NCBI GenBank assembly: GCA_036172245.1
Contig: JAYWIR010000033.1
Location: 1,116,001-1,180,000 of the forward strand
Reading direction: 5' to 3'
Length of the DNA: 64,000 bases
Source of the DNA: Raillietiella orientalis
Lineage: Eukaryota
Position 1 is the first letter of the stretch; each line of letters starts with the position of its first letter. The position numbers were made by a program, and so were the translations under genes. Below the pieces are notes generated by a model. It worked only from the letters and a program-made list of their open reading frames with translations, made no database searches and had not been told where the DNA came from. Positions 11,380-45,496 of this stretch are shown piece by piece.

Positions 11380-12651
11380 CCTGTTGGCGGCCTTGAGGCT
11401 GCGGTCTACGCGCGTCGTCGAATCCCTGCGTGGAGGACCAGCGCCGAGATAACAGTGGACACACACCCGAGAAATGGGAGGGGTGTGTGTGTCGTAAGTT
11501 TCGAGTCCTTCCTCCCAGGGTGACGCTGGTTTGACACTTCGTCTTGCCGGGGCGTTTATTTATGTAAAAAGAGAAACACAATGGTCAGTGCCAGGACGCT
11601 CGGTCTTCCCACTTTACAAATGTAACCATGGAAACCAGCCGAGGACTGGCACGCAGGCCGACGAGGTTTGCAGAAAGGGAGGGGAAACAACAGAAAAGAA
11701 AACTGAAACAGAAAAAAAATACACGAAAAAACTGGGAGGGTTCGAGAAGGAGTCACTGGATGCTGGAGGGCGTCCTCTACATCCTTTGCAGATCGGCAAG
11801 TTTCTGTTTTAAGGTTTCCGGATGGGTCCATCTTGACGCAATCCTCATGAGGAGGACGGCAAAATAGATGGCATTCCTATCGTCCCAGACTCCTCTGGCG
11901 TTGCCCCATGCAGCCACGGTCCCGCCGTGTAGGCAGCAAAGTGCTGCTAGGGATGCGGCCGGCGTGATGGGGTCGCGCTGGAAGAGGCCCTTCATAACGT
12001 CTCTGGGGCTGCCCTCGGTGACACTCAGGGACTCTGCAAAACGTTCCCACAGGGGCGGAGGGCAAGCAGGATGACACCAGTCGGTCCACGTGCTTCGGGT
12101 GCGTCACTGCTGAATGTTTCCGTTGACCGACCAGGATTGGAAGTTGACCCTTTGGGATACTTCCAGGCATCATCCCCTTCGGTTGTGAAAATGGAGACGT
12201 CTATCGAGTACCATGGAGCTGGTTGATACGCAGACCCTTCGTAAATCGCTTCTCCAGAGTGCGAGATGAGCTCTGCTCCCCTCGGGGAGCGTCTATCAGA
12301 GAAATCTGGAAGCGTCTTTGCGGGGTTCTCGTCAGAGGAGGAAACCAGGAGCAGTTCCTTTGCAGGTTCACTTCGGAGAAGAAATTCAGGAGCAGATGCT
12401 TTCTGGGTTCCCTTCGGATGAAGAAATGGCGAGCTTCCCGGAGTCCAGGATCCAAGAAATATGAATCTAGGAAAGGTTCCACCGGAGCCTTTCCTGGATT
12501 CGTAGACTAGTTTCCTCCAGGAGTGCTCCCTAACTCGAATAGTCAGCACACACCCTCGGGCAACGTGGAGCTATGTGAAAGGACTTCGTGGGCCCCTAGG
12601 CGAACTTGTTCTTCAATACTTAGAGACCCTTCCCCCTCAAAAAAAAAAAAA
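11380..12651 (+). mobile_element. SINE-like repeat, copy B, split by a Tx1-like insertion
   Basis: Decayed head at ~11380-11530. The body resumes at 12067 (caggatgacacc...cttccaggcatc...cggttgtgaaaatgg...ccatggagctggttgata); poly(A) at 12639-12651. Confidence 0.7.
11531..12066 (-). mobile_element. 5'-truncated Tx1-like element (ORF2 C-terminus, 3' UTR, terminal motif)
   Basis: Peptide NAIYFAVLLMRIASRWTHPETLKQKLADLQRM; terminal AATAAACGCCCCGG...GTG motif at 11560-11535. Confidence 0.8.
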
Positions 12652-12699
12652 GGGAACACCAACTGAGTACAACTTCCGGTCTCATCGTTTCTGATTTCG

Positions 12700-13868
12700 A
12701 TCCGAGTTGCCATGGACTTCCGTATTTCGGCGGGAAAAAATCAGAAGTACCGAAACTTTTGATCTCGAGGATCCATGGGCGACTTCTGCGACGACAGCAA
12801 GAGGAAACCTCGGGCGCTACCTCAATCAGAAAGCATCCAGTCCGCTCTGTGCCGAGTGCGGCCACTTGCATGCCGGGATTCATCTCCTGCTATCTCTCTG
12901 CCACTTCACGCACGCCGCTGCTCGACTGAGCCTCTTGCTCGAGAGGGAGGAGCCAACAAGGAGCGAGTGTGCAGGAAGGATCCACGATGGACCTCTGCAT
13001 GCGGCACTCCAAATTCGTGGCGGCGAAGAGGCGTGACCATTCGATCAAGCCGACCAAGGTGAAGGACGGATGGAAAATGAGAGTTCGTGGCTTCGAACCA
13101 GTCCTACCCAGAAGGCAGCTTAAGACCCCTTACAGTGGTCATGTCCAACGTCGGCCATTCGGCGGCGGAGGCCCCTCCAAAGTGCTGGACGACACCTGTA
13201 CCCAGGCAAAGGACCGAAATTTTGAGCTCGCCTCCTGAAGAACTGTTCGTCCCTCCCATGTGCCTGCGATTCTCTCAGGTGGCGACAAGGCATGGGGGCT
13301 CCTCTTCCACTGGGATCTCCCTCGCACCCAGGGGAGCGCCTCTCCGGAGCATGGCGGGTGTGGGATGATGAGACCGCTCCCGCACCTGTCTAAGAACTGC
13401 GGTACCCTCCATTGGTTGCGGGAGAGGCCACAGAATTCCTCAAGATACGCCGCCGTCCTTCTTTCGGCATCGCCGCCGTGGCTGCGATGCAATGCCGCAT
13501 CCGTGGCAACCTGAAAGCCCTCTTCTCGAGCTGGAGCTGGAAGCCATCTGCCAACGCTGTCCCTTCCGTGAAGGAGGCTCGCACGTGGTCCCACTTGAAA
13601 GAGGAAGTTTTCAAGGAGGTCGTCAACCCCTCAACTCTGCCTCCACCCTCTGTCCTTCTCTGTTCTGTCCATCCTCCCTCCCTACCACTGCTAGGAACAA
13701 GTCCGAACGAAGTCAAGCGAGTCGGCGAACCTCCGGACTGAACTCGGTACTTTTTTCATGTCTGTGTTTTTTCCCTCCTTTCCTTGTTGATTCCCGAGGA
13801 AGAACGAAGTTTTTTGTTTTTCAGTACTTTTTATGAGGATTCGTCCCGGGGAGCGGCCGGGTGAGAAG
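12700..13868 (+). mobile_element. One or two decayed L1/Tx1-like ORF2 3' fragments
   Basis: Zinc-finger-like CAECGHLHAGIHLL (ORF 12707-13036) and LLFHWDLP...GGCG...PHLSKNC (ORF 13260-13514); CCCGG...CCGGGTG end motif at ~13845-13863. Confidence 0.55.
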
Positions 13869-14517
13869 TTATCCCCGTGGGAACGCGGCAGCAGCACTGG
13901 AAGAGGCAAGATGACACATAGAACGGAGCCCAAACATAGGAGGCTGTCCGTCCAGCTCGCCAGCAAGGGACTGCCGAGCAGCTGCCGCAGGACCACTGCG
14001 GGACTTCGCTCGATCGGGAGCGCCTGCGCGGACCCGTTGGAGTCGCGTTGCTGTGAAATCCGCGCAATAACTTTTTTTTTTTTCTTTTTCCATCACGCCG
14101 GGGACGGGGGTCCCTAGGCTGGTGAGTGTTCATTCCCGAGGAGATGGACGTCCCTCGCTCGCGTTCGCTCGTCGGCTGGAATGCAGGGACGAGAGTCTCC
14201 CGGTGATCGGATGGCTCGTATCCTTTTCCTAAGACCGAAAGAAGAGCCCGTTCGCAAGGGCAGCAGCTCAGCGGGACCGGGAATGCGGAGCGCGCCGAAA
14301 AGATGAGGAACGGGACTCGGTTGCGTGGTTGAACCCGATGAGGATACGTCAGCGAGTGCTGCTCGGCGGAAAGTGAAGGGAGCGTTTTCGGGAGGGGCGA
14401 TAGTGAACTTAAGGACCACAGGCAAGGTCAGCGTCAGAGCAAAAACGCCTCGACGGGACAGCCAGCCCAGTCCCCATCAGCCCGTCACGACTCCTCGAGC
14501 TGCAAGAGAAGCGCCGG

Positions 14518-14635
14518 AGATGAGCCGAAGACACGATGGTTAGCTTATGGTGACGTAGATGAGCCGATATGATGGTAAGCCATTAATGACGTAGATAAGC
14601 CGAAGACACCGTGTCTCTACACGAAGATGAGCTGA
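14518..14635 (+). repeat. Short degenerate tandem repeat (~32-39 bp, 3-4 units)
   Basis: AGAT(G/A)AGC(C/T)GA recurs at 14518, 14557, 14593 and 14625; the first intervening sequences are related (gatggt.agc...tgacgt). Confidence 0.75.
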
Positions 14636-15859
14636 CGATCCTCTTGGCCAATATAGCGCTGCTGCTGCAGATGAAAAAAACAGAAAAGAAAGGTGACTCG
14701 CTCAGGGTGCCTGATGAGGATGGTGTGAGTGGACATTGAGCAGAGCTGGGGCACGAACCGGAGAGACATCATAGACAACCGCCAAAGAGCCTCTGGCGGT
14801 GCAACAAAGTAGAGCAAAATCTATGAAACCCATACACCGAATTTGAACAAATCCACTGTGAGATCTTCGCGGTGAGGAACCTGTCAAACTGCATCCTTCC
14901 CGCAGGAAGAGCCAAGTAAACGTTCCTCCGAGGACCCGGAGCAAAGCTGTCTGGTCCTTGGTTACAGTGGCTTTGCGAATCGAGGAAGCTGCTTGCGCCG
15001 ATGGCAACTTCTCAAATGGTTTCCCGTGCATCTCTTGTGCGAAATGGAAGAATGGCACTTGGCCAGGCACTTTGGGAGAGCGGACCTGGAGTGGAGCACG
15101 TGCGCATTCGGAAACGGAAGTCGCCAGGCAGCCCCTTGTTGAATCGTAGCTCGGGAGTGGACCTTCGAGAGGGAAATGGAGGGGGAGCGAGCGTCTGCGA
15201 AGGGGTCCTGGGCGGCCAGCACCTCAGCACGTCTCAGCCCAAGACAAGCCTCATGCTGCATGCTTTTCCCGACCGCTGCGTGCAACTTGCACCGAGCATC
15301 CTTAGAGGGAGGGCCAGGAGTCCCTGCAGGTCACCGCGAACAAACTCGAGCCGCGAGAAGAACAACGGAAAGCTGAGAAAATATCAGGGAAAGGAAGAGG
15401 AAGTCACAAAACTCGCGGGGGTGGGGTGGGGGCTTTCGAGCCTGGCTTTTTCTCCCGAATGACCTAATGGAGGCTTCCCCTCCGTCGGTTTCCACACAGT
15501 GCCTGCGGTGGGGAGGGAGGCGCACGTCTCATCCACTCGGATGAGAGCTTTGCTAAAAGACAAACAAACAAACCATTAAATGGAGCCGCTCCGCGATGCG
15601 CCGCTTTCCGCTGTTTGCTTGAAACCCCCGCTCTACCCTTTCGTTGCCTCCTCGGACGGGTTCGTTACGAAAAGCAAACTGCACAGGCTGAGGCAAAGAG
15701 CGTCGTTTCTCGCCCGTCGGATCGACAGCGTTCAGGAGAGCCATCCTGCTGGCTCCGTCCCTGAGAGAGAGGCCTTTCTCTTCGGCAGGATACGACCAAG
15801 TGGCCTCAACCCGTCTTACTGCGAGACGCAGCGAGGCGAGCCCTAGCGTCACTCCCGGG

Positions 15860-15985
15860 ACCGAGATTTCTTCTCCGAAGAGAACCCCGAAGGGACGCTT
15901 TCCAATTATTCCTGAAGGGCGCTCCCCGAAGGGAACAGCGCACTTCTGGAGGCATCTCTGGAGAGGCATCAACCAGCTCCATGGT
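15860..15985 (-). mobile_element. SINE-like repeat, internal fragment G
   Basis: Reverse complement of ccatggagctggttgat at ~15968-15984 and of the adjacent body seen at 3100-3170. Confidence 0.55.
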
Positions 15986-16119
15986 GTGCGCACAACGTGA
16001 CCACATGGCCCGCGTTGGCGACCATGTGGCTGAGAATCAATAAATATCAAGAGAAGAGGAAAAAGGAGCCTGGGAGTGCGGAGAGTCCACCAGCACCGCA
16101 CTCTCCGGAGCCACATCTT

Positions 16120-17920: not shown

Positions 17921-18299
17921 CTCCGTCTCCTGCTCACCAGCGGGGTCTGTCGAGGAATTCGTCTAGCTGCCACGTCGTCGAACATGCGTGGGAGCGAAGC
18001 AGGACGAGGTCAAAGGTCGCTCCTGCAGACGCGGGATGGCAAGCGCAGCCGGACTGGCTCCACTTGAAGATTTCCGAGGGCAGCACCATGAAATACCATG
18101 GTACGCCCTTAGTTGACTTCTGTTCCGTAGAGGTTTTGGCTGCAGTTCTCTTCGGAAAACAGAATTGCCGCTGGGGCGGTACCAAGATGGCAAGGTTGGC
18201 TTCTGGGAACGGGACTCTATTTGTAATCTCTTCCTTGTCCCCTTCTCCAGCCCTCCTCTTTTTGCTCCGCTCCCGCCATGAGGGATGAGGCGCAAGACT

Positions 18300-19330: not shown

Positions 19331-21762
19331 GGACTCCAGAGTCAAGGAAGATGCCAGCAACTTTCCGAAGAAGTAGCGAGTATCTCTGTCCCTTCCCTTA
19401 TTTATCCATGACGTGTCCCCTCTCCTGCCCTCTTCCTGCTCATCTATGTAGCTGCACTGCCTTTTCTCTGTTTTTCCTTGTCTCTCGCTGGATTTTTCAT
19501 GGACCATTGGATTCCTTAATCCACACTGTCTGCTGATTCTTTCGGAGAAACTGGGTGAAGATGGCCGCGGCGTTGGTTGCACGGTGATTCCCAGTGCAAG
19601 GGCAGCGTTGCCACGTGCTACATTCAGGGCGGAATCCCTAATACAAATATTGGGGGAACGGTGGGCACTGCTAATCATCCAACAGGCTGCCCAAGGGTGC
19701 CTGCTCGCCAGACTATCCCTTGTAAGCGATCACGTGGTGTCGCAGCGTGCGGGAATTTTCGGCTCAGAGACTTCTCATTGCTTGCTTGACTGACACGTTG
19801 CTGCAGGAAGCCCCTCATTCACTCGGCCGTAGTTGCGGAAGAATGCTCGAAAGGATTGAAACGGAAATGATCTCATCTGACCCAGGAAGCCAAGAACAAA
19901 ATCCTTCTCATCTCTCTCATAGAGCCTCCGGGCAGCAATCAGGTGATCGGTGACCCCGTCTGTCTTTCAGACACCCTACAGTGACCTCATCACAGCGCTG
20001 CGTTTAGGAGCTTGGTTGGCTACGCCTCTGGAGTTTCTCGCTTGTTTGCTTCCTCATGATGATCAGTTGGAAACCAAGAGCAGCCCTCTCCCTGGTCACC
20101 ATCGCTAGGCTATTGGCGACAGCACCGGTCTTACAGTCTCAGCCTCTGACCTACAAGTGGACTTCCAAAACGTAGACAAACGCAGTTCCTTGTGGTGGGA
20201 AGATGCGATTGCAGCAGTGATGTCTTCGCCAGTCCACTGCAACGAACGTCAACCCGACAGTCGACTCTTCAGCGGGTTTGTGACCACGCGGTGACTGCGT
20301 TCCTTCAGGGCAATCTAGCGGGAAAAGGGGAGAATCTGAATATCAAACCAGGAGGTTCCAGCGGAAGAATTCGTAGAATTTGAGCTTGGTATGTGAAGAA
20401 GAGGAAGAAGAAGAAGAAGAAAAAACGCGCAGTTCTCCTCGCTTCAAGGACGGCGGCTGAGCACAGCGGCGATCAATCATCGCTTCAGCCCCACAGAAAT
20501 GCATGCATGCTGCCTGGAGAGATGGATGGTAAGGATTACTGCTTCACAGAAATTTCTCCGAGACCGAACTTCCGGAGGAGTGGACCGTGCTACCGACTAT
20601 CGTTGACGAATGTCTTAGCAGCAGAATTCTAAGAATTCCTTGATGAGATGGAAGAAATGTCTTCCAGTAGGTGGAGATTTTTGACTCGCTGCAGCTGAGG
20701 TAATGCAACAGCCACTTACGGACAGATAGGGGATCGGTCGTGCTTTCCATGAAGCTGCATCTTTTAAATTCACCTTCCCATTTACTAGCATCTACTTGGG
20801 ATACAATGAGAAAGGGTGTCCTCCTGTATGGGCGGAAAGCAAGTCCACCATGGATAAGGAACTCGGATCCACACGATTTGGCATCCCACGTAGCTCGTCC
20901 ACTCCTCTCTCAAGGGTAAAATCAACAGCTGTATCGCTGTCTCTTGCACTGATCATCCAAGGTGCAAGTCATCAAGCCCTTATGCATCGGTGGATACGAC
21001 ACAATGTGGTCGCGTTTTTTCTTTCTCCACATCCTTGATATCACACCTTTGCACTTGCTACGCAGAGGTCAGCATCATCACAAGATGTGGTACAGACTTA
21101 GTTCTCCAAAAATGAAGCGTTCGATTACCCTTGTACGTGACGGTTCTGAGGAGATCGCTTCGTGATGGCCGAAGTGCTGCAAAACTGCAGCAGTTATCTG
21201 GGAGTTTCTTCCCGAAACCGCTAAGACGTGTGCAGCGTGACTCACCTGAAGGAGTAAGTCACTGGTCCCGAAAAAAGGTGGCGCGCGCAAGAGCCTAGCC
21301 TACATCCGTCTCCCGTGACAGAACCGCCCCTACTGAATGCTGAACCCTGGTCCGTCTATCCAGTTTTCACTGACTCGCACTCTCCCTATCCCTTTCAGCC
21401 CACTGGTAGGAACGAAGTGGTTCCAATAGCGAAGGAGAAGTTCAGCTCCTCTCTTTGGAGACTCCGGAATTGGGAATTCGCTGAAGAGCATGCGACGCGA
21501 CCGGTCTTGGGAACGGATGGCGCTAAATCGTAAACCCTGCATCCAGCAGCTTGTTGCAGACTGGTTCCGAGTAGCTGTAGGTGAGCGTTGGCCGATCTGC
21601 CAGCGCGATGACCCTGCCCGCTGGCAGTGACGGCCTACGTAAACGACTTCCATCTCCCGCTATTCCTATCCTCTCCGGAGGCTTAGCTGGAAGAGTTCTT
21701 CTGCGGTGTTGCGGAGCGACGCATGGATCACCGGAGACAAATGCAAGGAAACCTTGGTTGGG

Positions 21763-22480: not shown

Positions 22481-23370
22481 CACATTGTGTCCGTCTGTTC
22501 CTCTCTATGGGATGTACCTTCAAGAGCCTTGGGTCTTCCCCGACTTCTCTCTTGCTGAAGCCTACTCCCGTTGCCTTCGCAGGACAAAAGAGGCGCTTCA
22601 CCACTTCTCCATTTGTAGGCTGCTCTTGTCGGAAAAGGCTGCGGCTTGGAATTCTTTTGCTGTTGTCCTCCTCCGTTCTGTTTGATTTCTCCTTCTGAGA
22701 AATCTTCAACATTGGGAAGAAGCGAATGGCGTGCGGAGGAGCGCATTTCCGTTCGCCGTTTCGTTTTGTCATGCGCTCCGCACGGAACGGCATGGACTCG
22801 ATTTAAACCCACCAGCTCAAAATCAAAAAAGAAGCCTGGGACATCTCCTGCTTGCCTTGCATTCCTTCGCTCCGTGCTAATCAACTTTTGTGTGTTCGCT
22901 ATTGGGAGATGGGAGTATCCCGCCATTCTGTGAGGAGCTGATCTTCCGTGCAGTATCTAAGCGACCACGCTCATCATGGTGCACCCTGAAGCTGGGAAGG
23001 AGAGAGCAGAGCGAGTGACTCCGGCAGCTGAGCATCTGTGCATCTGCTGGCTTCTAGAGAGATGCAATCATTGTCATTAGTCCACGCGGGGTGCTTCCAG
23101 ACAGGAAAATGAACGTCCAAAGTAAACATCAGTCCTAAGGAACTTTCCTCGTACGCCGACTTCTAAGTCGCCTACACAGGAAAACAGGAAACACTAAGGC
23201 AAGCGAACAATCAAAAAAATGAATAAATAATGAGGGAAGGGAAGGAATCACAGCTTACATTGGCTGAGCCCTCTGTAGCCTCCCTGAGATTCAGCAGGCA
23301 ACCTCCTTTCTTCACTGCAGCAGAGTAGGCCCTTCGGCGACACTCCTCATCGTTGAGGAACCTCCTCCAC

Positions 23371-23424: not shown

Positions 23425-23439
23425 AATTCTGGAGCTCCT

Positions 23440-25040: not shown

Positions 25041-27364
25041 GACTGCTATCTGGAACGCGGTGAGGTGGTTGTACTCTTCTCACATTTGGATGCGTCCGTG
25101 AATTTCTGTGTTCCAACCAGAAGCTGGTAGAGCTGTGTCTTTGGAGTTTTCCGTCCCCTGTGCTTCACGCGCGCAGCCCGTGAGAGCAGGAGAGCCCATG
25201 GGTCCTCGTGTGGCGACGTTGCCAAGCAGCAGCGATTCCTCGTGGCGTGAAAGCATCGGTTGCCGTGTACTCTGCAAACCGAAGAAGGGGAAACGGCTGG
25301 ACGGACGGACTTGCGACGCAGCAGAGACGAATACGGCATTGCATCTTCCTCAGGACAGTAAAAAATAAATACATAACAGGTCTCCTCAAAGAATGTGCGT
25401 TGCTGACACTCGAAGAAACTCCTAGACAGGTACCTACCACAGCCCATGAATGACGATATCAGCGTGACAAGAAACCAACTCGTGCTGGATTGCAGCACTG
25501 TGAAAGGGACAAAGAAAACTCTGTAAGGAAGGAATGCAATGGAAAGCGCTCTGCTGATGATGTTATCTGCAGATGCAGATGCTGGTGACAACTCTAGCCT
25601 ATCTGTTGCCGAAGCCATCAGTTACACAGGCAAATAGTGGACCATGAGCTTTCTCAAGTTTGAGAAGGCAAGAGTGACGAAAGGGATGTCTTTTTTTTTT
25701 GTTTGTTTTACCATTTGAGCTTTCGTTGGCTCCACATTCGACTCCCATAGCTGGAGAGAGATGAGGAAAGGATGGTAAGGAGCACCAGTTACAATGCGGG
25801 AAACGTGAAACGTTTCAAAATTCACCTTTAATTTCAAGAGAGTCGCGACTTTCCATCCAGGGATTTATACAGAGGAGAGGAGGCTGCCATGTGGTGACCT
25901 CCAAATCCGAAATTGAGACTCTTCGCAGAGTCCCTGAGGAGGCACTTCTGCAAATTCCTCTGCTGCTTTCCGGTTCGGTAATACTTTCAAGATTCATCCA
26001 TGCTGAGGTGGTCGGGCTGCTTTTAGGAGGATCCGTCTTCAGGTACAGTTTCCATAGAGTAATCCGAATTTCTAGAAGGATTTAGAAATTCGGGAATTTG
26101 CAGGGATAGTTTGTATCCAAGATGATGTGACACGCTGCTCGAATCCCACTGGGATGGTAGCATCAGGTAAAGATTCAGTAAAATTATTCAAGGAGCTCTC
26201 AGCCTCAGCTCGCACCTGGACTATGAGGATTCTGGAAAATTTTCAAGGGGGGCCTTACATAATTATGTAACGATCAAGTACATTTAATAGGTCTCCTTTA
26301 GAGGTCCCATGAAACACGTATCAGCATTCGGAGAAGCTTCTATTTGGAGCAGCAAAACCTCAACTCAATTTTTTGGAGTTTGAGAAGGTACTTCCTGTAC
26401 ATACACGCGTTACGGTTCAGGGACTCCCACGTATCCCTTCGTGCTAACAACTGGATAAGGGGATCGAGGTTTGCTTGTTCCTAAGCGCGGTGTGCTTCCT
26501 GAATGCTTCCCTGGTGGAAGGCGGGCTGTCATTGTCTGAGACACTGCTTCTTAAGACGCAACCAGTAGAGCTCTCCCAGGCCGGGTTCAGGGAGTGTGGA
26601 TAAAGGATTGATGTGGACTCGGGAACAACAACAACAACAAAAACAAAGTTAAATGAAATAAAAATAAAGAATTCGAACCCGCCAGAGAGGAGTTTTCGCA
26701 AACCAGTTATTATGCGCCAGAAGGCAGACCATTTCCTCTGGACTGCAGATTGCTCGACAGCATGCCTGTTTAGGAAATGCGCCTCAGGCAACGATTTCCT
26801 TCGTACAGCGAATGCCAATTTCCTAAAATTCAAAAGTCATCCCCCCCCCTCCCTCCTCCTCTTCCCTTTTTTCGTTACACGAATGTCTCCTCCAATTACA
26901 TAGGTCCAACTATTAGGTAAAATAGTGGATTTCAACCAGCCATCTCACATCGGGGAGGCAAATTACAATTTCGAAAAATTACCGTGGGCCACACAGGAGA
27001 ACGTTGAGGGCCGCGTACGATCCAGGAACGAAGGCTGTGGAGGCACGCAGGTTGCCTAGCTGCACAGCGTGTGCACTCCTTGAGGAGTCCTCACGAGAAG
27101 GAGAAACTGCCGCCAAAGGCCCAGACACAGGCGGGTGATCCACGAGTGTCACCATTCAAAAGCTTCTTCGCCATTCGAACGGTTACACGGGGTCCCGCTG
27201 CATCTCGGGATTTCCACAGCTTCATCTCTTTAATTGTAGCTAAAGCGATAGAACGACTTCCATCTGCATTCCGAGATTCCTTCTCATCGGTGATCGGGCT
27301 GGATGCTGTGACTGCTGCCAGTATACGCTCCTGAAGGATGGTGTTGCGTTTCCTGAATGCCCGC

Positions 27365-28384
27365 CAACTTGGAGGATGGCTCCTCCGCGCGCGGTCGTGC
27401 ACAAGCGTCGCGGGTTCGAGTCCCTCCCGGGGAAGGATAGACTCCAGGGTAATGGGTGCGTCGTGAGTTTCCAGTTGCCTCCGTAGGATGACACCTGTAG
27501 GCTTCACATGCGGCGCTGGTTGACACGCAGCCACGCCGGGGCATTTGTTTATAAAAAAAGTAAACGAACACGCCTGTGGCAGGACGTTTGATCCTGCCAC
27601 GTTACTTATAACTACGAGAAGAAATCTGCTGGGAACTGGCACGTAGGCCAAAGAACGGGGAGGGAGGTCAGGAAAGGATTACTGTGTGCTGGAGGGCATC
27701 CTCTGGATCCCTGTAAGGATGCTGGCAAGTTTCTGTTTCAAGACTCCCAAATGGGGTCATCTTGACGTTGTCCTCATAAAGAAGACAGCAGACTTCATAT
27801 GCGGCGCTGGTGGAAGCCGGAAACCTCATGATGCCCCCATGGACTGATTGGGGGTGGGAGTCGACCTCTGGAGTCCCTACAGGCATCAAGGAGCTCATCG
27901 AGGTTCCTCTCCGGTTGTGAAAATGGAACCGTCCGTCAAGTACCATGCAGCATGTTGTTGATGCCCCTTTCAGGAGGCCGCCTCTCCAGAGTTCAAGAAT
28001 CGCACTGCTCCTTTCGAGGAGCGCCTTTCAGAAAAATCGAGAAGTATCTTTCCAGGATTCTCTTCAGAGGAGTAAACAAAGAGCTGTTCTCTTGCTGGTT
28101 CCCACCGGAGAAGAAATGAAAAGCAATCCCACGAACCGAGGTTCCACCAGAGAGAATAAGGAAGAGATCACCTTCGAGTTTCCCTCCCAAGGAACGGACT
28201 CCTTCCTCCGGATCCTTCCCGGGTCCTTTCGTGATTCTCCCTATAAATTGAAGAGTTGGCACAAGCACCCTCGGGTGGCGTCGACAGTGTCAAGGAGCTG
28301 CGTGAGTCCCCCTTCCTAAAGAAGCGGACGGGTCTTCAGCAATCAGAGAGCTAACAAAAAGAAAGCCTTAAAAAAAAAAAAAAA
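27365..28384 (+). mobile_element. SINE-like repeat, copy C, split by a Tx1-like insertion
   Basis: B-box GGTTCGAGTCC at 27413-27423; body resumes at 27793; poly(A) at 28370-28384. Confidence 0.8.
27521..27792 (-). mobile_element. Short (272 bp) 5'-truncated Tx1-like element with 19-bp TSD
   Basis: Homologous to the 3' end of the 33.6-35.1 kb copy; flanked by CTTCA(C/T)ATGCGGCGCTGGT at 27502-27520 and 27793-27811. Confidence 0.85.
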
Positions 28385-28479
28385 GTTGGAAGGGAAGCAG
28401 CGAAAACAGAACTAAAGAGAACAGAGGAACTATTTCCATCATCCCAGGCATCAACACTCGCAAGTTGTTCCAGGAGATC

Positions 28480-29441
28480 GTCCGCAGAAGATGCGGTGGG
28501 CCTCGTTTACCCCCTTCCCCCCTTCTCTCGTTCTAGTGTTGCCCTGCCTGAGGGACGCAAGGGGCAGTGTAATCCCGAAAAGGTGGGAAGCGACACGCTA
28601 CATAGGAACAAAGACAAAACTTCTGGGCAGGTGGACAACTCGACACTGCGATCCCGGATGTCCCTCCCCACGGACTTGTACGCCGAGGAGAGCTGCTCAA
28701 CATCCGTACGGAGGAGGTGAAGTGGCCTTACTGTGTTGGGACAGTGGCGCCATCCCCCTCGAGTAGCAGGAGTCGGCATTGCTGGTGCTGCATGGGGAAT
28801 TCCGTGCAAAGCTCGCCTTCACCACTGGACACGGGCAGCGTGGACGCTCAGTGAGTCAGGTGCGGGAAGAAGGACACCCTCCCGCACTTGCTGCTGGACT
28901 GTGCTTCCCTCCGACACCTTTGGGATTACCTCGCGACGATCCTAGGTATCCCGGCGTGCAGCACCAGGGACATTTTCAAACGCCTCTTAGAGCGTGCCGC
29001 CAGCCGCGTCCCTCGCAGATCTCTGCTGTGTTCGCGGGATCACAGCGGCCTGGAACAGAAGAGGAACGCCAGAAGAAAAGACCGAAAGACAGGGACGCCA
29101 TCCACTGGGAGCGGATCTTCCTGAAGACCGCCTCGGGATGGCTGTACCTGGGCGTTATACGGACGGAATTTGCCGGCATCGTGAACAGGACGCAGAGCAT
29201 GCCTGGCAGCGTGCTGTGATCCCTTCCTCGTCCCCCCCTCCACGTGTACAATTTCCCCTCCCCTGTTTTTGTGTGTTTATTTTTATTTTTTGTTTTACTC
29301 TCCCCCACGCCGCCGAAACGGACCTCCGGTTTGCTCACCGGTCTTGGACAGGTTCCAAGCACATGGTAGAACCAAGTGTTCTACCACACCAATAAATTTT
29401 TATTGCTTTATGTAATAAATGCCCCGGCATTACCGGGTGAT
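28480..29441 (+). mobile_element. 5'-truncated Tx1-like element
   Basis: Peptides LLDCASLRHLWDYLATILGIP and DAIHWERIFLKTASGW; AATAAATGCCCCGGCATTACCGGGTG at 29414-29439. Confidence 0.85.
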
Positions 29442-30851
29442 AATCATCCTAAGCCAATAGCAATGCTCTCCCCGAGAGGTCGCTACTGGTCTTTTTAGCT
29501 CCCTAAGAGAGCTGCTGTCACGGACCTCGTCCAGCTGCTTTGTCTGGCTGATGACTCACACAATGCATCCAATACTCGAACGTCCAGTGCCCTTGCAATC
29601 GTGTGGACTGTGCTGAATATGGGAACGCTTTGTCTACGTGCGACTAGTCCTGCTACAGTCCATCTGCCCTCGCTCTTTGGATCCATCACACCCAGGGAGC
29701 ACACGGCTAACTCTTAGAGCTGCACCTACACCCCTCGCCTCTCTTCGTTTCAGCTTGCTCTTCCACCAGACGACGAGGTTAGGATGTCGGTCGTAGCGAT
29801 TGGACATTACGCTGCGTCATCTCATCTGCCACGAGGCATCCTCTGTGCGTACGATCTTCATGCTCCCTCGGGGGAGCTGCTCGTGTGGGCTGCAAATCAG
29901 AGCGTGCAAGGGGAACTATGCGCGTCTCCATCTTCTGCCTATGATGCCTTCTGGGTCGTCCCTTTTAGAAAGTACCCTCCAGCTTTTGAAAGAGGCGTGA
30001 CTACGCTCACTTGGAAGTCTGGAAGATTTGTAGCAGAATAGGCGTCACAACCACCTAATCTTTGCTGTTAGTCGTCGATTTTCTTGCGATCCGAGTGTTC
30101 GCTCTCCGGGAGAGTTCCTTGATCCAGCAACTTTTCAGAGACCTAACGATTTTTCTGCAGGACTCGGTTCTTCATATTCTCTGAGAAATTGCGATCACGA
30201 AAGCATTTCCCTTTGTCTTCAGGGTTTGTCATATCAAATCATCATTACGGACTTCTGGTTTTGGAAGCTCTCAAGGAACATCTGTCCCAACCAGGAACTC
30301 CTTTTTCAGTACTGCCTGTGCAACCATTCCTGGAGGGACGTTCGGTTAAGCTGATGTACTCCCCGGATATTAGGGGTTTATCCGTTCGAGGCAGAACTGT
30401 GTGAAGCAGAAGATGCCAAAGAAATGTTCGAGTCTGCTCTGTTTCAGAAAGAGGTGGGGCTGTCAGGCACCCTGACTGGAAGCAGGCAAATGACAAAGAG
30501 AACATCTCATACTGCAGAAAGGAGCATTTCCTTCAGATCAACGGGAATGAAAAGCATTTTCCCCTGCAGGCTGATTTCCACGAAGAGAGCCAAAAAAAAA
30601 AAAGCTGGCCTACTTCGAGAGAACACGATTCACAAGGGCTCCTCCAGAAAGATGAAAAGACAGCAACACAAGAATAAGTACAGGAGAACCCAAAGTGTCC
30701 CACAAAGACTAACAGACATGTGAAAATCCAAGGCTCCAAGAAAACGAAAATGCCGAAATGATTGCAAACAAAAGAGGAGCATGGCGGTTGATGAAACAGC
30801 ATATCAGAACTTCGAGCTGGGATCATTAACTTTACAGTAGGACTTTATGAC

Positions 30852-32670: not shown

Positions 32671-33099
32671 CCCTGTACTCCGATGGCGAAGGGTTGAAAG
32701 AGGCTGTCCGTGAATTGCGACAAGAAGACTTTTGGAGAGCCCCTGAAGAAAATGCGGTGCTGCCATCGATGCAGATGCGGCAGAGGAAGGGGAGCAATCC
32801 ATAGCAAACAGATACAGAAGAAATCATCATCTCTCTCGCCATCCTCTCTCTCACCGCGCCGCCCATTGCATTTTCTCGAATGCTCTGCGAGAGTGTTTTA
32901 CAACCGAGTGGGAGAGAAGAGCAGAACTTTCAGAGATGATGAAGATGGCTCCTCTTGAAATACTCCGCCATTTGTAGAGATTTGTAGCGCAGTTGAATAA
33001 TGCACCGTCTTTAGGAACGAAATACGAGGTGACGATGATTTTTGATTTATGAGCGAATTTTATCCGGTAACTAAAGCGATGAATTGAGCTGCTTTCATG

Positions 33100-35260
33100 A
33101 TAAGTGCCCAAAAACCGCTCGCCTCCTTAGGGGGCGAGCGAAGAGCCTTCAGCACTGTCCACGGCACTCGAGGGTGCGTCTTCAAGTTATAGGGGGTATC
33201 TCGGGAGGGAACTGTCCTATGGATCAGGAAGGCTCCGGAAAAGGAGTCCCTTCCCCTCTTACTCTTTGGAAGGGAATCCCTAAGGGAAGCTTCTATTCCT
33301 TATTCTCTCCGGAGGGACCCCTGGAGGGAACCATTCTTCATTTCTTCTCCGAAGGGGACCCCGTAGGGAACTGCTCTTTCTTTACTCCACTGAAGGGAAC
33401 CCAGAAGGAGATGCTTCCCAATTTCGCTGGAAGGGAGCGCTTCTTACACTCTGGAGAGCTATCAGCCAGCTCCATGGGACGCGAACCAGTTCCTTGATGC
33501 CCTGGAAGGACCCAGGAGGGTCCAACTTCTCAATCCCGGCTAGCCAGTGGGGGAGCATTCGAGGGTTTCCAGCTTCCACCATCATCGGTCCGAGAAAGGA
33601 AGTGCCTGGTGGCAGGAAACCGCTCTCCTGTGGACGAGGACCCAGGAGGCAAGCGCGGAACAGGGGCTACAGGAAAAGTCTTTCCTGCACGCGCTCAACA
33701 ACAACTGCACGCTCCGGGAGATCCTGGAAGATCCCGCGAAGCGTTGTGCTCGGGCTCCTGCTCTAAGCGTCTATTTCTTTCGCCTTTTACTAAAGAAATC
33801 CGTGGGCAGGAGCGTCTAAAAGAGCGAATCTTTGTGAGTGCCCTCTTAGGTTCTCGCCGGAACAATGGGAGTTGACCTTCGGTTCCTCCCATGAATAGAA
33901 GAGTAGGGAGTTCCCCCTCCGGTCGTGCAACGGAGAGCGGACCCCCGTCACCGAGGGACCACCTCCGGTTTCAAGATGGAGCAAGAGCCCTCACGGGCAC
34001 CTCTCCAGTTGTTCAAAGGAGTAACCCCCTCCTGTTGGGGGGTCCCTCCGAGTCGTCGCCTCTTCACAGAGTGCACAAGGAAGCAAGCGAGAGCGATTCC
34101 CTGCGGGGCAAACAGAACCTCTGTCGCCGCTGCGCTGCCTCCCTTAGGGAACACATGGATAGCAGCCCTACGGCTAGGTGGGAGGTTACTGTGGAAACCT
34201 CCGTAAGGAGGAAAGGACTGGGCGAGTGGACGAAGGGTTCGCTCACCGACTCTGCGACCCCGATTGCTCGACCTCGTGGGCTTTTGCACTGGGGCATGCT
34301 ACTGAGTATTCCGGAGGAAGAACTGCAGTGGCCCCCGGTGCTCATGAACACCCGCACCCTCCCTTTAAAGTGGCAAGGATCGGCACTTCTGCTGCTGCTG
34401 CACTGGGGCCTCCCTGGCAACGCCCGCCGGCATCTGTGGGCACGGGTGTGTGTGAACACAAACTGTGCAAGGTGCGAGGAGAGGGGAATCCTTTCTGCAC
34501 CTCCTGGTAGACTGTGTTGCCTACGGCTCCTTTGGGGACGCTTGGCCACGACCCTTGGAACCCGCGGCTTCAACGCCAGAGACGTTGTAAAGCACCTCTT
34601 CCTGCGCAATGCCTCACGCCTGATGCATCCCCAGCAGCACTTTGCTACCCATGCGGCGGTATCGTGGCTGCATATAGCAACGCCAGAGGGAGCCAAAACG
34701 ACGGGAACACCATCCATTTTGCTGTCCTCTTCCTGAGGACAGCGTCAAGATGGCCCCATCCGAGAACCATAAAACAGGAACTTGCCGGCATCCTTACAAG
34801 GATGCAGCGGGCGCCCTCCAACACACAGTGATCCCTTCTCGAACCCCCCCGCCCTCCCTTCATCTTTTTTGACTGCAGTTTTTTGTTTTGCTTTTTTTCC
34901 TCCTGTTTGTCTTCCCTTCCCTTGTGCTTCCGAGGCGCACCCTGCTGGCCTGCGTGCAAGATCCCGGCAGGCTCCTTTCCGTATTCATAAGTAACGTTGC
35001 AGGATCAAATGTCCTGCCACAGACATGTAGGTTTGTTTTATAAATAAACGCCCCGGCGTGACCGGGTGTCAACCATCACCGCACCCGAAGACTATAAAAA
35101 GGCCAATCAGTGTCATCTTGCCGGGGAGAAACTCGAAACCCATGACGAACCCCCCTATTTTCAGCGTCGAGACTCCCTCCCCCCCCGGGCAGGATTCGAA
35201 CCCGCAACGCTCGGTACTACGCGCTGAGACCGCGGCAACGCGGGCTCTTATGACAGTGGG
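33100..35260 (-). mobile_element. SINE-like repeat, copy D, split by a Tx1-like insertion
   Basis: Minus-strand head with B-box GGTTCGAATCC at 35202-35192, running down to 35072. The body resumes at 33587 (tggtggaagctgg...gtccttccagg...ccatggagctgg). Confidence 0.8.
33588..35071 (+). mobile_element. 5'-truncated Tx1-like element with 281-codon open remnant (33891-34736)
   Basis: Peptide GLLHWGMLLSIPEEEL..TLPLKWQGSALLLLHWGLP..NCARCEERG..LWGRLATTLG; AATAAACGCCCCGGCGTGACCGGGTG at 35043-35068. Confidence 0.85.
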
Positions 35261-35799: not shown

Positions 35800-35854
35800 T
35801 CAATTCATATATGAATATATAGAATGAGCACATACATTTGCTTCCCATAATCTT

Positions 35855-35893
<39 letters not shown>

Positions 35894-36050: not shown

Positions 36051-36079
36051 GAGCACGCGTGTTTTTTTTTTTTTTTTCC

Positions 36080-37080: not shown

Positions 37081-37129
37081 TCAGCGAGCGTGCCGATCAA
37101 AGTCCCGAAGGATCTTAAGGACGAATGTT

Positions 37130-39849: not shown

Positions 39850-40567
39850 CATGCGGTCTAATTCTTTCGGTGTGTGGAAACGGCAGCATCTCGTGGTGTT
39901 TCCATACTCGCTGCGAAATGGTCCACGGCGCCCAATCCCGAGTTTTGGGCATCGGCAGGGATCCCCTGCTTCGTGGCCCGTGTTGCGGCAGGGAATCGTC
40001 AGGACCAGTCCTGCCTTCCAGAGCTTTTGGAGAGAACTGCTGCTGTTTTACCACTCTTGTCAGGCTCGCCTTTGAACTGTGCCAATTGCGGGGGAGTCTT
40101 TCCCGCACCTGTCCGTGGAGAGCATAGTCCTCAGGAGTGAGTGGAAACGTCTTGCCGCGGTCCTGCAAATTCCTAAGTTTCGACCGCCGTGAGAGGCGAC
40201 ATTCCTCTCCGCTCCAAGAGGAACTTCGTTAACAACCCAAAGGACGTTACGAAGTTCCTCTTCGAGCGGAGAGGAATGTCGCCTCTCACGGCGGTCGAAA
40301 CTTTCTGCTGCTTCAATGGCGTGCTGAGGGTCCCTCTAAAGTTCGATAAAAAACAAAACAAAACAAAAAAAGTCTCCTCTTTTTTTGGTTTTTATCTTTT
40401 TTTACTCCCCTCCTCCCTTCCCATGTTCGGCCTCTCTTGGCAGCCCGCTCGTGGCTGGAGGCGCCTCCTGAACTCCGAAAGATGCAGTGAGATTTCCACT
40501 CCCCATTACGAATGAATGGCCTTTATTTTTTATTTTTAAAAGAGACGCCCCTGCGCGACCGGGGCCA
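39850..40567 (+). mobile_element. Strongly decayed Tx1-like 3' fragment
   Basis: WRELLLFYH and LNCANCGG..FPHL remnants; T-rich UTR; decayed end motif cgcccctgcgcgaccgggg at ~40546-40564. Confidence 0.5.
40175..40303. repeat. 55-bp inverted repeat (one mismatch) with 19-nt spacer
   Basis: 40175-40229 is the reverse complement of 40249-40303 except for one C/C position. Confidence 0.95.
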
Positions 40568-40815
40568 AATCGGTCCGCTCCTGACACTAACGATGATACG
40601 ATACCACCTGACCTGTTCCCGAGTTTCAAGGAGGCCCCTATGAGCCGCGTAGGGTCTCTCGTCCCAGTTGAACGTGGTCCTCAGGAGTCGCGGCACGCGA
40701 GGAGCTGTATCATTTGTTCGCTCATTCTTCATATCTCTCTTTCCCTCGGACCGCCGATGAATCAAAATCCCGGATGTAGAACTCTCAAAAGACCATAAAA
40801 AAACAATACATTAAT

Positions 40816-41660
40816 ATAGAAAATCACCTGGACCAAGGGAAAGCCATGCACTGTGTTGGACTACACAAGGATTTTAGATAATTCCTTACTCCGGGTGACC
40901 ACATTGGCGGATTATCGCTTCATCCACGTCCTACCAATAAGAGGAACAGCAAGAAGATTACCAGCGGATCGCCTATGCCGAAGATGCAACTGTCGGGATG
41001 AAACATTACCACACGTACTAAACCATTGCGTGATGTATTTCCCGATGTGCATCTCTCGACATTAATGCAATGGTGCTGAGACTGCAAGCAGTCGCCACAA
41101 AGGTAGGAGGATGCAAGCTCGTATCAGCGGATACCTGGAGTGGACTCTCCGTTAAAGCCGGATCTCATCTTTGAGAAGACGGAAAGTGGATCATAGTGGA
41201 CGTTGACTGCCCATTCGAAGGCAAGGAAAACGCGTTCACTGAAGCACGACAAAAGAGGGAAGAAAAATATGAAAATCTGATCCACAGCATTAACCAGATC
41301 GGCACAACATCCATTGTGCAGGTCTTTATCGTTGGAGCTTCAGGATCGTGGGATCCCAAGGATGATGCATTGCTGAGACTACTGGGAATAAAAGAAAATG
41401 GCGCCAGAAAGTTAAGAAAACTGGCCATATCCTGCTGCATCAGGGCCATCAGGGACATCCGTTGGGCGCACAGACTGAGGGATGCACCCGACGATGCAGA
41501 GACCCCATCCAATACATAATGAAAGAAGGACAACCCAAGACCCAGTCCGTTGTCAACTGAACAGCAGATCATCAATCATATAGGAAGAGCTGGAAGAGCA
41601 GGCAGAGCCAGAGAGAGTGATTCTGCAGACGTAAAAAGAATTAATCCAATAAACAAAACC
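40816..41660 (+). mobile_element. 5'-truncated, frameshifted Utopia/NeSL-like non-LTR retrotransposon with restriction-like endonuclease
   Basis: Ordered motifs DQGKAMHCV, ADYRFIH, CRRCNCRDETLPHVLNHC (CCHC), RH(N), KPDLI, IVDVDCPFE, AFTEARQKREEKY, VGASGSWDP and RDIRWAH are typical of the RLE domain of R2-group elements; AATAAA at ~41648. Confidence 0.85.
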
Positions 41661-41929
41661 GCACGTGAGGGGCTTCATCATTTGTTCGTCTTCATCTCTC
41701 TCTTTCCCTCGGACCGCCGATGAATCAAAATCTGATGATGGAAATCCTTCCTTTTCTTTCTTCGCAGTTCTTCGACACGGTTCCACGCCTCCTGAGGGTA
41801 GGTAATTCTTCAAGATAGGGGGTATCCCGGGAGGGTCCGCCCTATGAATCCCGGAAGGACTCGGAGTCCCTCGGACCGCCGATGAACCAAAATCCCGGAT
41901 GTAGAACTCTCAAAAGACCATTAAAAAAA

Positions 41930-42290
41930 AATACATTAATTAATCTACATATTGGTTCATTAACGTATTGACTTTTATGATCTTGACTGAGTTTACATAT
42001 GTATTTATTTATAGGTTAATACATACGTTTTTGCATGGATTAATGCATATATTTATATATAGATTAATATAATATATATCAAAGATGATTTAAAAAATAA
42101 ACACATATTCTCATTAAGTGCATTAATATATGTATGTAGGTTACATTTTCACATACACATTCATTAATATCCATTAACATGCGCATTATTAAAGTGATTA
42201 AGAACGTGCATCAGTATATTACAACTGTGTATATTGCTAATTATGAAAAAAAAAATTGCGTATTTTTATCATATGTGATAGATCCATATT
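41930..42290. repeat. AT-rich low-complexity island
   Basis: Same composition and motifs as the other AT islands. Confidence 0.8.
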
Positions 42291-43228
42291 AACCCTTTGA
42301 GTGCTACGGATGCATCTGTGCGTCTGGCAAATGTTTTTACCATATGCACGCGACACAAATTAACACTATCAAGGTTTGAGAAAGACTTCGTGGAAGAGTT
42401 TCCAGCCTCCGAGAAGAAGCCGGCTGAAGCAGAAAAGAAGTGGACGGTGAAGAGCGTGGGTGGATAAATAAAAGAAGAAGAAAAAAAAGAATTCACGGTA
42501 AGGACGGAGAGGGGGTACCCCGGGAGGGGTCCGCCCTATGAATCCCTATTGCCTGAGGGATGCAGGTCACAGATCCCGGGGGTGCGGCATCAGGATGGGG
42601 CGCTTCCCCTTTCTGGTCGCGCCATTCTGCCGCACTCTCATGAAGGCGGCGGGGATTGCGCGCGTCCTTGCTGGGCTCTGAGGAGGAACAGCCGAGTGAA
42701 GCGAGGGGTTCCCGTGTGCACTGGGCGCATCCTCGGGGGGTGAATCCTGTCCTGACCTTTCGACCCCTCTACCGCAAATCTATTCCTGAGAGCTGGAGAC
42801 TTCCGCAAATGTTAGGCTTCGCGTTTCCACGGGATTACGGAAACTGCAGCTGAAGCTCCAGAATGCTGTGGATCGACAGTGACTCTCATCATCTAAAGAT
42901 TTTTCGCCGTGGAGCAGTAATCGCAGCGCGAAGAGCTTGCGCTTAGATTCTAGTAATTTCTCTTCGCGGGCTTCACGGTCGACGCACTGCCAATGTTTCG
43001 CTTCATCTGCATGGACTTATCCTGTTTGATTTATATGCCCGGTTGTCAAGGCGGATTAGGAGGAGGAATAGAAGTGGGAAGCCGCTCGTATTTCGAAGAG
43101 CTTGTGGAAGGTCAGCAGCGGGATAGAGTTATCGAAAAAACACGCGCCAATGAATAGCAACACGTATCGATGCACAGACGAGAGCGAAACCGCATCTTTG
43201 AGATTCACAGCTGCCGAAATGACTACAC

Positions 43229-45496
43229 GGCTCGCGCTGGCGCATATGTGGCCCCAGTTCCCGCGCGTGGTACCGAGCGTTGCTGGTTCGAATACCCGTG
43301 AAGAATCGGCGCTTTAAGTGCCTGGGAGTCCCGTTGGGGGACTTCTGCGCAGCAGAAGTCCGGTCAAGTCTATTCAATGGCAAATCCCTCTTGACCCACG
43401 AACTGCCCTGTAGAATGCTTTCTTGGCTCCCCTTCTCCGACCCCCCTGCTTGTTGTCTGCCACTTGCTCGGAGATGTGAAAAGGCGGACCGAGGACCCTC
43501 CGCGAAAGCCTTCTAAGGAATGAAGAGGTCCCGGGTCCGCTCGAAGGACTTGCGAGCGACACGTGGAGACTCTGGGCTCGGTGACCTGACGCTGGGGAGG
43601 ATGAAGCGCCAGCTCCCGTGTAGAAGATTAGCCCTATTATCCCCAGGCAAAGTTCTCGACCAGCCACTGGTGCGTCCCAGCCAGGCTCCTGGCCAAGCCA
43701 TCAGCCGCCGTCGAGGGACTCGGTGCGTTCCTCGTGCATGGCCACCGAGAGTTGTCCCGATGCACGTACCCACTCCGGCAAATGGTTGCCTTGGTTCAGG
43801 AGAACATAGGAATGTCCTGCCGCCCCACCAACAGTAGTGTCTGGAAACAGGAAACGGATCAGGCGTGGGAGGAAAGAAACGGCACAAGCCCAGAGCAACC
43901 GCGATGCCTGCGATTCTCTGATGATGCTCGCTGCCCGTTACAGAAGTCATGGACTACCCAAGAAGGACCGCCTGAGTGCGGAACGTCCCACTCGCCGCCA
44001 CGCTCAACATGATCCCACAAAGTGGGCATGGAGCTGGCCTTGAGAGATGAGAAGTACCCTGCAAAATCGCGGGGAAAAAAAGCGACTGGGATGCTGGACT
44101 GCGCGTCAGCTGGATGACGCATGTACCCTCGCCGCTTTCTCCCCCGAAGGGATTCGTCGCTGGGTGGAACTCGAAGACATTCCTCCTGAAGGGATTCCTC
44201 CAGTGTTTGTGGACAGCCCCACGCTTTCCCTGGAGTGGCAGGATTCGGCATTGCGGTTGCTGCGCTGAGCCATCTCGTGCGTTGCACGAGTCCACCTCTG
44301 GACGAGGGGAGTGCGGTCCCAGACTGTGCCAGGTGCGGGGAACGGGAAACCTTCCTTCACCTGCTGTTGGATTGCGTTGCCCTCCTGAACGTCTGGGGAC
44401 GCTTCGCTGCAACCCTTCCTACTTCCGATGGGCAACGGCAGAGAGATCTTGCGGTGCCTCTTCGCGCGCGACTCGATGTCTCCTGCAGCTTCCTCCCCTT
44501 CAGCCCCGTGCTGCCCTCATGGGGTCATGGCGACGAGAGGACGCTCCCCAAGAAGCCAGTCGAACGGTGAGATCAACGCGATTGCCTGCTCCTTCGTGAG
44601 GAAGGCGACAGGATTGCCACCTCTCCGCCAACAAAAGGAGGAAGTTGCCCACGTCCTCCAGAGGATGCTGTGGACGCCAGGAAGGAATCTGCAATCCCTC
44701 CCCATGGCCTTCCCCCCTTTTTAAACCGAACTTTTCAGTCTTTGTTTGGTTTGTTTGTTTTTGCTCACCCCCTCTTCCACGCCCCCCTGCAGATCTCATC
44801 GCAGAGCTGCTCGCGAGTTGCAGCGCCTTGAAGGCATCTCCCCTCGCAGTGGTGATGTGAAGTCACTACGAAAGGAGCCATTTTTTTTTTGTCACTATTT
44901 TATATGACTGTCTTTTTTTTGCAATGAGCTCACCCACGTGACCGGGTGAGAATAAAGGATCGACACCACAGAAAAGGGTGCGTCGTGGCTTTGGAGCCCC
45001 CCCCCCCCGCAGGATGACGCTGACTGGCCTATTCGGGTGTGGCACCTATCGAAGCCTGGAACCGGATGCCTCCATTGAATGGCCATGGAATTAGAAGTCG
45101 ACCCTCCGGGGTCCTTCCAGGACATCAAGCAGCTCTTCGGGGATTCCCTTCCGGCTGTAAAAATAGAGCCGTCCGCTGCGTTCCATGGAGCTGGTTGATA
45201 ACCCCCTCCGGAGCAAGTTGCCAAGCTGTCACCCTTCAGCGAAGTTCGGAAGCGTCCCTCCGGGCTTCTCTTATCAGGAGAGTAGCAAGGAGCGATTCCC
45301 TCGCAGGTTCTCTCCGGAGAAGAAATTCAAGAGCAGATGTTTCCTGGATTCATAGGTGCTCCCTCTTGGATTACCTCGGGTGACGTCGGCAAACGTTAAA
45401 GAGCTTCGTGAGTCTTCCCCAAGGAGGGCAACGGTTCTTGAGCACTTAGCAAATTCCTCAAAAAAAAGGAAAAAAAAACCCGAAAAAAAGAAAAAA
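43229..45496 (+). mobile_element. SINE-like repeat, copy E, split by a sense-orientation Tx1-like insertion
   Basis: A-box-like TGGCGCATATGTGG and B-box-like GGTTCGAATAC (43285-43295). The body resumes at 44953 (ggatcgac...gatgacgctgactggcctattcgggtg...ccatggagctggttgata); A-rich tail at 45459-45496. Confidence 0.75.
43313..44952 (+). mobile_element. 5'-truncated Tx1-like element
   Basis: Clearest zinc finger, CARCGERETFLHLLLDC (44325-44375, zf-RVT-like); peptides INAIACSFVRKA and KEEVAHVLQRM; end motif gtgaccgggtg at ~44938-44948. Confidence 0.85.

Follow-up and report, generated by a model that had tools for sequence, protein, structure and literature searches.

The DNA analysed is a 64-kb stretch of the Raillietiella orientalis genome (GenBank assembly GCA_036172245.1, contig JAYWIR010000033.1, positions 1,116,001 to 1,180,000 of the forward strand), called the window below; all coordinates count from its first base. 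The window is eukaryotic and repeat-rich, with a G+C content of about 50%. Its main subjects are a short interspersed nuclear element (SINE)-like retroposon and fragments of a retrotransposon without long terminal repeats (non-LTR), of the long interspersed nuclear element (LINE) type. One LINE subfamily is present in four copies (B, C, D and X), three of which (B, C and D) lie antisense inside separate SINE copies, two of them at the same SINE nucleotide. All statistics refer to this one window, which was chosen because it showed the pattern.

A SINE profile was built from the six head-bearing copies (A to F) and searched across the window, where it returned these six and one internal fragment (15867-15989). 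The element is about 700 bp long, running to an A-rich end in the alignment, and the individual copies, which are non-coding and dispersed, measure about 500-700 bp. Together they occupy 4295 of 64000 bp (6.7%). Pairwise identities among the copies are 61-67% in a star-like pattern, and the copies are old. Copies A (2813-3480, + strand) and F (49440-49941, + strand) are uninterrupted. Copy A matches profile positions 3-599 in one piece at 2813-3345 and continues, by alignment, to an A-rich 3' end; copy F matches positions 6-581 and is without the usual 3' part. Copies B, C, D and E give two profile matches each, resuming in register with a short overlap that equals a target-site duplication (TSD).

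Copy B (+ strand) consists of a head at 11385-11530, which ends in the 15-nt left TSD CAGGGTGACGCTGGT (11516-11530), and a body with A-rich tail at 12067-12660, which begins with the right TSD (12067-12081, 11 of 15 positions matching). The head of copy C (+ strand) lies at 27363-27520 and ends in the left TSD at 27502-27520, CTTCACATGCGGCGCTGGT; its body and A-rich tail follow at 27793-28400, with the right TSD at 27793-27811 (18/19). Copy D is on the - strand: the body occupies 32990-33587 and includes one TSD copy at 33578-33587 (ACCATCATCG on the + strand), and the head occupies 35072-35248 and includes the other at 35072-35081 (ACCATCACCG, 9/10). Copy E (+ strand) has its head at 43238-43312, with the left TSD at 43299-43312, and its body and A-rich tail at 44953-45560, with the right TSD at 44953-44966 (10/14).

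Each insert carries the letter of its host. LINE fragment B (11531-12066, - strand, 536 bp) covers positions 155-694 of a 694-position LINE profile, and its 3' end at 11531 reads ...GCCCCGGCAAGACGAAGTGTCAA followed by ACCAGCG. LINE fragment C (27521-27792, - strand, 272 bp) covers positions 352-694. The LINE part of D (about 34120-35071, + strand) comprises the C-terminus of the second open reading frame (ORF2) and the 3' untranslated region (3'UTR), with a CX2C...HX4C motif at about 34440-34530 and a stop at about 34735. All three are antisense to their SINE and belong to a subfamily with the terminal sequence GTGTCAA. The fourth member, X (21763 to about 22519, - strand, 5' end uncertain), has the tail GTGCCAA and lies outside any SINE, no SINE profile match being found near it; its candidate TSD is ACCCAAGGCTCTTG (about 22522-22535) paired with ACC..AAGGTTTCCTTG (about 21745-21762).

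In the LINE profile, the matches of B, C, X and D begin at positions 155, 352, 2 and 2, respectively, and all finish on the same base. The subfamily 3' end reads ...AATAAAYGCCCCGGCGTGACCGGGTGTCAA, without poly(A). Over the last 270 nt the four copies are 64-78% identical to one another. The coding part carries a CX2C...HX4C zinc knuckle and a stop, followed by a 3'UTR of about 340 nt; within the window, tblastn ties it to at least 10 fragments (lowest E-value 7e-17). The extent of 5' truncation varies, leaving 536 bp in B, 272 bp in C, about 760 bp in X and at least 950 bp in D. TSDs measure 15 bp in B, 19 bp in C and 9-10 bp in D, with the matches given above. This combination of a constant 3' end, variable 5' truncation and TSDs of 9-19 bp is the one expected of LINE 3' fragments that arose by target-primed reverse transcription.

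The fourth interrupted SINE copy is a separate case. LINE fragment E (43313-44952, + strand, 1640 bp, TSD 14 bp) is in sense orientation to its SINE. It ends in GTGAGAA and belongs to a different lineage; in the last 270 nt its identity to B, C, X and D is no more than 47-53%. Its position in a SINE is at the level of chance, the probability that at least one of the nine other LINE ends falls in SINE DNA being 0.46. In the preliminary description all four SINE copies were taken to be cut by the same LINE family, an assignment that holds for B, C and D as one subfamily and has to be given up for E. The following parts of the anatomy described there were borne out: the TSD pairs and the insert lengths of 536, 272, 1484 and 1640 bp (B, C, D and E) could be read from the sequence, the profile is unbroken at the empty sites of A and F, and all four insertions lie shortly downstream of the proposed RNA polymerase III (Pol III) B-box, with GGTTCGAnnCC about 25-105 profile positions before them.

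At the B, C and D sites it is the SINE-sense strand that was nicked. The C site reads ...GCGGCGCTGGT^GGAAGCC (core GGCGCTGGT^GGAAGC) and the D site ...GCGGTGATGGT^GGAAGCT (core GGTGATGGT^GGAAGC), both at the same nucleotide near profile position 159. The B site, ...GTGACGCTGGT^CGGTCC (core GACGCTGGT^), lies near position 134, about 25 positions further upstream. Each of the three sites closes with GNTGGT^, and the B and C sites have CGCTGGT^ in common. The X site, outside the SINE, reads ...CCTTGGGT^. SINE copies that are empty near profile positions 134 and 159 no longer read TGGT there.

With uniform landing, the probability that at least three of the four subfamily copies fall in SINE DNA is 0.0011, and a coincident pair among three SINE hits has a further P of 0.0023. 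There are 445 TGGT sites in the window, 7.2% of them in SINE DNA, and under a rule requiring TGGT only, at least three of four hits in the SINE are expected with P=0.0012. When occupancy is considered for GMTGGT, three of nine SINE sites are filled vs 0 of 61 elsewhere (Fisher P=0.0015). Within the window the subfamily is associated with the SINE, well above what uniform landing would give.

The three SINE insertions are independent events, later than the burst of SINE copies. Descent of the nested copies from one duplicated composite, which the preliminary description had named as a refutation of its proposal, was checked and is rejected. Under such descent a single ancestral SINE carrying the LINE would have been duplicated or retrotransposed, and C and D do share both the SINE nucleotide and the LINE orientation. 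Yet their inserts measure 272 vs 1484 bp and their TSDs 19 vs 9-10 bp, each TSD flanking its own insert exactly, and the truncation points differ. Identity between C and D is 79.2% in the LINE parts (269 positions) but 63.4% in the host SINEs (585 positions; z=4.6, P=2e-6), which are no closer to each other than other pairs of copies (61-67%). Almost no weight is therefore left for a common composite. The TSDs have decayed unequally (mismatches at 1 of 19 positions in C, 1 of 10 in D and 4 of 15 in B), which suggests that the hits took place at different times, after the SINE copies had diverged.

The D insert (33588-35071, 1484 bp) is composite, with all parts in LINE orientation and inside one TSD (33578-33587 and 35072-35081). 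Its first 158 bp (33588-33745, + strand) have no match in self-searches of the window. They are followed by a full-length U5 small nuclear RNA (snRNA)-like sequence (33746-33854, + strand; Rfam RF00020, 69.3 bits against a gathering threshold of 40, model positions 1-117 of 117). Next comes a segment resembling the SINE body (33837-34102, + strand, profile positions 175-433), which is in the opposite orientation to the host SINE. This segment matches the body of SINE C (27854-28134) with an nhmmer E-value of 5.1e-5, and a local search with the SINE profile scores it at 18.9 bits; it is absent from the listings of the whole-window profile search, and it scores 17.3 bits vs at most 3.3 bits in 300 dinucleotide shuffles. 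LINE similarity begins at about 34120. A U5 copy upstream of a 5'-truncated LINE within one TSD is the layout of a snRNA/LINE chimeric retrocopy. The simplest reading is a single retrotransposition event, with either a template switch or a composite RNA as the source. It was considered less likely that a U5-bearing element had inserted separately, exactly at the 5' junction of the LINE, as no second TSD was seen on reading 33575-33587 against about 34100-34125. D could be a one-off product of template switching or a copy of an unrecognised non-autonomous family. Its succession of head, body and LINE tail is also the layout of a SINE.

Eleven LINE 3' ends were located in the window, at 11531, 13867, 17918, 21763, 27521, 29443, 35072, 37077, 40568, 44952 and about 49143. 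They represent at least seven lineages, and a terminal box GCCCCGG-N5-CCGGGTG-NNAA is common to all. Between lineages the last 270 nt are only 38-61% identical, and the last 4-5 bases differ by lineage. Fragment G (28450-29443, + strand) is from the lineage sister to the GTGTCAA subfamily, with the tail GTGATAA and a 12-bp TSD, ATCATCCCAGGC and ATCATCCTAAGC (10/12). It lies outside SINE C, about 40 bp past its A-rich tail. Ends H (37077) and I (17918), of two lineages that have the tail GTGAAAA, both lie at ...GAGGT^. At six of the nine mapped LINE ends the 3' flank starts with ACC, which corresponds to GGT^ (P about 1e-9); with the later ends P and Q included, the count is 6 of 11. Judged from these junctions, a nick at GGT^ appears to be a habit of the wider LINE group. 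A hairpin in the terminal box was tried and rejected: two alternative pairings have 76-78% of cells paired, with no compensatory change and no better result than shuffles, and no covariation in the box supports a hairpin. An 8-bp stem about 50 nt upstream of the box has two compensatory pairs.

The CX2C...HX4C motif is visible in X, D and E. Two matches to zf-RVT (PF13966) were obtained, both under the 27.5-bit cut-off, one in E (15.6 bits, E=0.026) and one of 17.1 bits (E=0.0088). The latter lies at 40820-41062 (+ strand) in another LINE C-terminal fragment, near which short repeats occur at 40742-40815/41867-41940 (96%) and 40693-40769/41661-41732 (87%). Among Atlas feature matches, 24 of 30 are in zf-RVT clusters (score 0.93), to be read as a lead only. 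These observations give weak but consistent support for an ORF2 C-terminus of the L1/Tx1 type; by its C-terminal zinc knuckle the lineage is L1/Tx1-like, with membership of a clade unproven. A Pfam scan of 450 of the 457 stop-to-stop ORFs of at least 70 aa (the seven at 63004-63762 were left out) found no reverse transcriptase (RT; RVT_1) or endonuclease at E<=0.01. Besides one zf-RVT match under the threshold, the same scan gave four weak matches unrelated to it, and no recognisable domain was found in the window. An RT is not expected in fragments of at most 1.6 kb of the 3' end, and its absence is therefore not an argument against a LINE family. A phmmer search of the PDB with the 286-aa ORF of D returned nothing at E<=1. 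In a metagenome scan with the 3' box of the subfamily, 80 of 112 stretches were compared, and neither the LINE nor the SINE profile matched any of them at E<=1e-3; the hits are chance matches.

The reading preferred here, at a probability of roughly 0.6, is that a nick preference for ...GNTGGT^ makes the SINE a frequent, but not exclusive, landing pad of one LINE lineage. One non-LTR lineage would have entered old copies of the SINE of about 700 bp at least three separate times, always antisense. Its endonuclease would nick the SINE-sense strand immediately after ...GNTGGT, and the freed 3' end would prime cDNA synthesis on an RNA ending in ...GUGUCAA, with an overlap of 0-1 nt. The second strand would be cut 9-19 bp away and reverse transcription would halt early, at variable points. 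In D it may have switched to another RNA that contained the U5 snRNA copy. The SINE consensus has the motif twice on one strand, so copies that kept it could be hit repeatedly and always in the same orientation. Two sites on the same strand account for the fixed orientation and for the hits at the same nucleotide, and a preference for a short sequence accounts for copy X outside the SINE. Further sequence context probably matters besides the motif.

Several observations weigh against this reading. A conserved SINE site, GGAGCTGGT^TGATAC (the non-hit GGAGCTGGTTGATAC site), is present in four copies and the internal fragment and was never hit, and six other CGCTGGT sites in the window are empty, so that having the hexamer or heptamer is not enough to make a site a target. 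The D target differs from the C target at 2-3 of the first 10 bases, which leaves the recognised positions ambiguous. Null models that take the motif into account give a modest excess, with P=0.0077 for GMTGGT (9 of 70 pre-insertion sites in SINE DNA) and P=0.031 for GCTGGT, and occupancy of CGCTGGT, at 2 of 3 SINE sites vs 0 of 6 elsewhere, has P=0.083. The motifs were defined after the sites had been seen, which makes these figures indicative only, and four subfamily copies were examined, in one window selected for the pattern. With neither RT nor endonuclease among the 450 ORFs scanned, no enzyme is tied to the landing preference. A phmmer search with the 196-aa ORF of D against 1.84 billion representatives gave no match at E<=0.001, a negative weakened by a frameshift in the query, and a word-based search with the 134-aa ORF of X gave 150 candidates (longer proteins), none at E<=0.01.

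Chance combined with abundance would require a weak, generic GGT^ habit, a SINE that happens to be common here and a window picked for coincident hits. The E insertion is fully explained in this manner (P=0.46, as above), GGT^ is shared by other lineages at sites outside the SINE (H and I), the 445 TGGT sites with 7.2% in the SINE leave room for it, and the window was selected after the fact. It is nevertheless considered unlikely, in that even the TGGT-only rule leaves P=0.0012, the pair at one nucleotide adds P=0.0023 and all three hits are antisense. Still less probable is tethering of the element to the Pol III machinery, with a TFIIIC-bound B-box directing it to DNA immediately downstream, so that any Pol III-type head would be attractive. 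The interruptions of all four SINE copies about 25-105 bp after GGTTCGAnnCC, in the first quarter of the repeat of about 700 bp, agree with such tethering, and a precedent is described in TRE3 of Dictyostelium discoideum, an L1-type element with APE, RT and zinc finger whose integration, guided by the B box, takes place 40-150 bp downstream of tRNA genes (PMC5911963). Here, too, a B-box-like motif precedes the insertions by no more than about 100 bp, and both elements have a C-terminal zinc finger, putative in the present LINE. However, the insertions of TRE3 are described as spread over a broad range and oriented like the tRNA gene (PMC5911963), whereas those of B, C and D run antisense, sit at fixed nucleotides and have a nick motif in common: C and D coincide to the nucleotide and B has the nick heptamer of C. 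A spread downstream of many Pol III genes, in gene orientation, as in TRE3, is not what B, C and D display. In addition, nothing resembling a B-box occurs within a few hundred bp of the junctions of X, G, H, I and J; by the time of the hits the host SINE copies were already old, and their heads are not recognised as tRNAs.

The head itself was examined for Pol III features. The GGTTCGAnnCC motif is exact in three of the six heads (A, C and D) and has one mismatch in E and F, and a T-arm-like hairpin, GCGGG-TTCGAAT-CCCGC, is visible. ARAGORN found no tRNA in the window, and Rfam gave none at E<=1 in the window and none at E<=10 on the head of SINE D. The B-box pattern occurs 35 times in the window vs 33 expected, which is no enrichment. 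A tRNA origin of the head, as read from the motif and hairpin, is plausible but unproven. Of the Pol III B-box put forward in the preliminary description and the idea of a tRNA-like head, the motif and the hairpin can be retained, while identification as a tRNA by either program failed. The proposal made there that the LINE prefers this SINE, or Pol III-promoter-proximal DNA, is narrowed: three of four subfamily copies lie in the SINE, but E is at chance level and a short nick motif fits better than proximity to a Pol III promoter.

The SINE copies A, B, C and E have A-rich 3' ends (about 3440-3480, 12620-12660, 28360-28400 and 45500-45560), and the LINE lineages seen here are without poly(A). 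The SINE therefore probably owed its mobility to another element, one that recognises poly(A) and is not seen in the window.

Preference of a LINE for another mobile element is a known kind of behaviour. According to Kojima 2015 (PMC4494074), Tx1-Mar is found in Mariner-N4_AMi and Tx1-9_AMi in Harbinger, and Tx1-8_Crp and Tx1-4_AMi prefer LTR retrotransposons; the legend of Fig. 3 of that paper adds U2 and U5 snRNA, 5S rRNA, satellites and microsatellites as Tx1 targets. The present case resembles the Tx1 clade in that a LINE appears to be inserted preferentially, not exclusively, at a defined place in another interspersed repeat, with sister lineages using other targets. It differs in that the host repeat is a SINE-like retroposon, membership of Tx1 is putative and there are three hits only. 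A SINE as the preferred target of a LINE was not found described in full-text literature searches, whose coverage did not extend to subscription journals and Repbase reports. Stringent-type LINEs, which include a monocot L1 lineage, are reported to have a conserved 3' stem-loop (PMC3472496, PMC4176376). The lineages in the window are similar in being without poly(A), in the conserved terminal box at 11 LINE ends and in the 8-bp stem upstream of it, and differ in that the terminal box has no covariation for a hairpin; recognition of the 3' end by the RT is presumed.

Chimeras of snRNA and LINE sequence formed by template switching are known for mammalian L1, as stated in PMC4494074. Like such chimeras (U6/L1) and SINEU elements, D has a full-length snRNA upstream of a 5'-truncated LINE in one TSD; unlike them, it has 158 bp preceding U5 and a SINE-body-like segment of about 260 bp between U5 and LINE, and one copy was seen. 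U6/L1 and other chimeric retrocopies were reportedly described by Buzdin in 2002 and by Garcia-Perez in 2007, as cited in PMC4494074.

Within this window the case rests on three events. If the preference held genome-wide, a SINE would join the known LINE landing pads, namely ribosomal DNA (rDNA), snRNA and tRNA genes, microsatellites, DNA transposons and LTR elements. If correct, it would be a compact natural case in which a nick motif and a multicopy repeat lead to 'safe-haven' nesting, and the endonuclease of the element would be a candidate for studies of sequence-directed integration. The chimera of U5, SINE-like and LINE-tail sequences bears on the assembly of new SINE families. It is possible, if rather doubtful, that the genome harbours a guild of related LINE lineages that share a 3' box and have their own landing sequences, one of them using the SINE as a safe pad. 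The same machinery would also join U5, SINE-body and LINE-tail RNAs into composites such as D, which would then be a SINE-like element at birth.

A few other repeats were noted. A 411-bp pair (6120-6530 and 49889-50299) is 96% identical and far younger than the rest of the window; it begins in the last 55 bp or so of SINE copy F, runs on into the flank and is probably a recent segmental duplication. Towards the right end of the window, which is richer in AT, there are a tandem duplication (56398-56611, period about 101 bp, 89% identity) and an inverted repeat pair (54201-54391 with 57686-57496, 79% identity).

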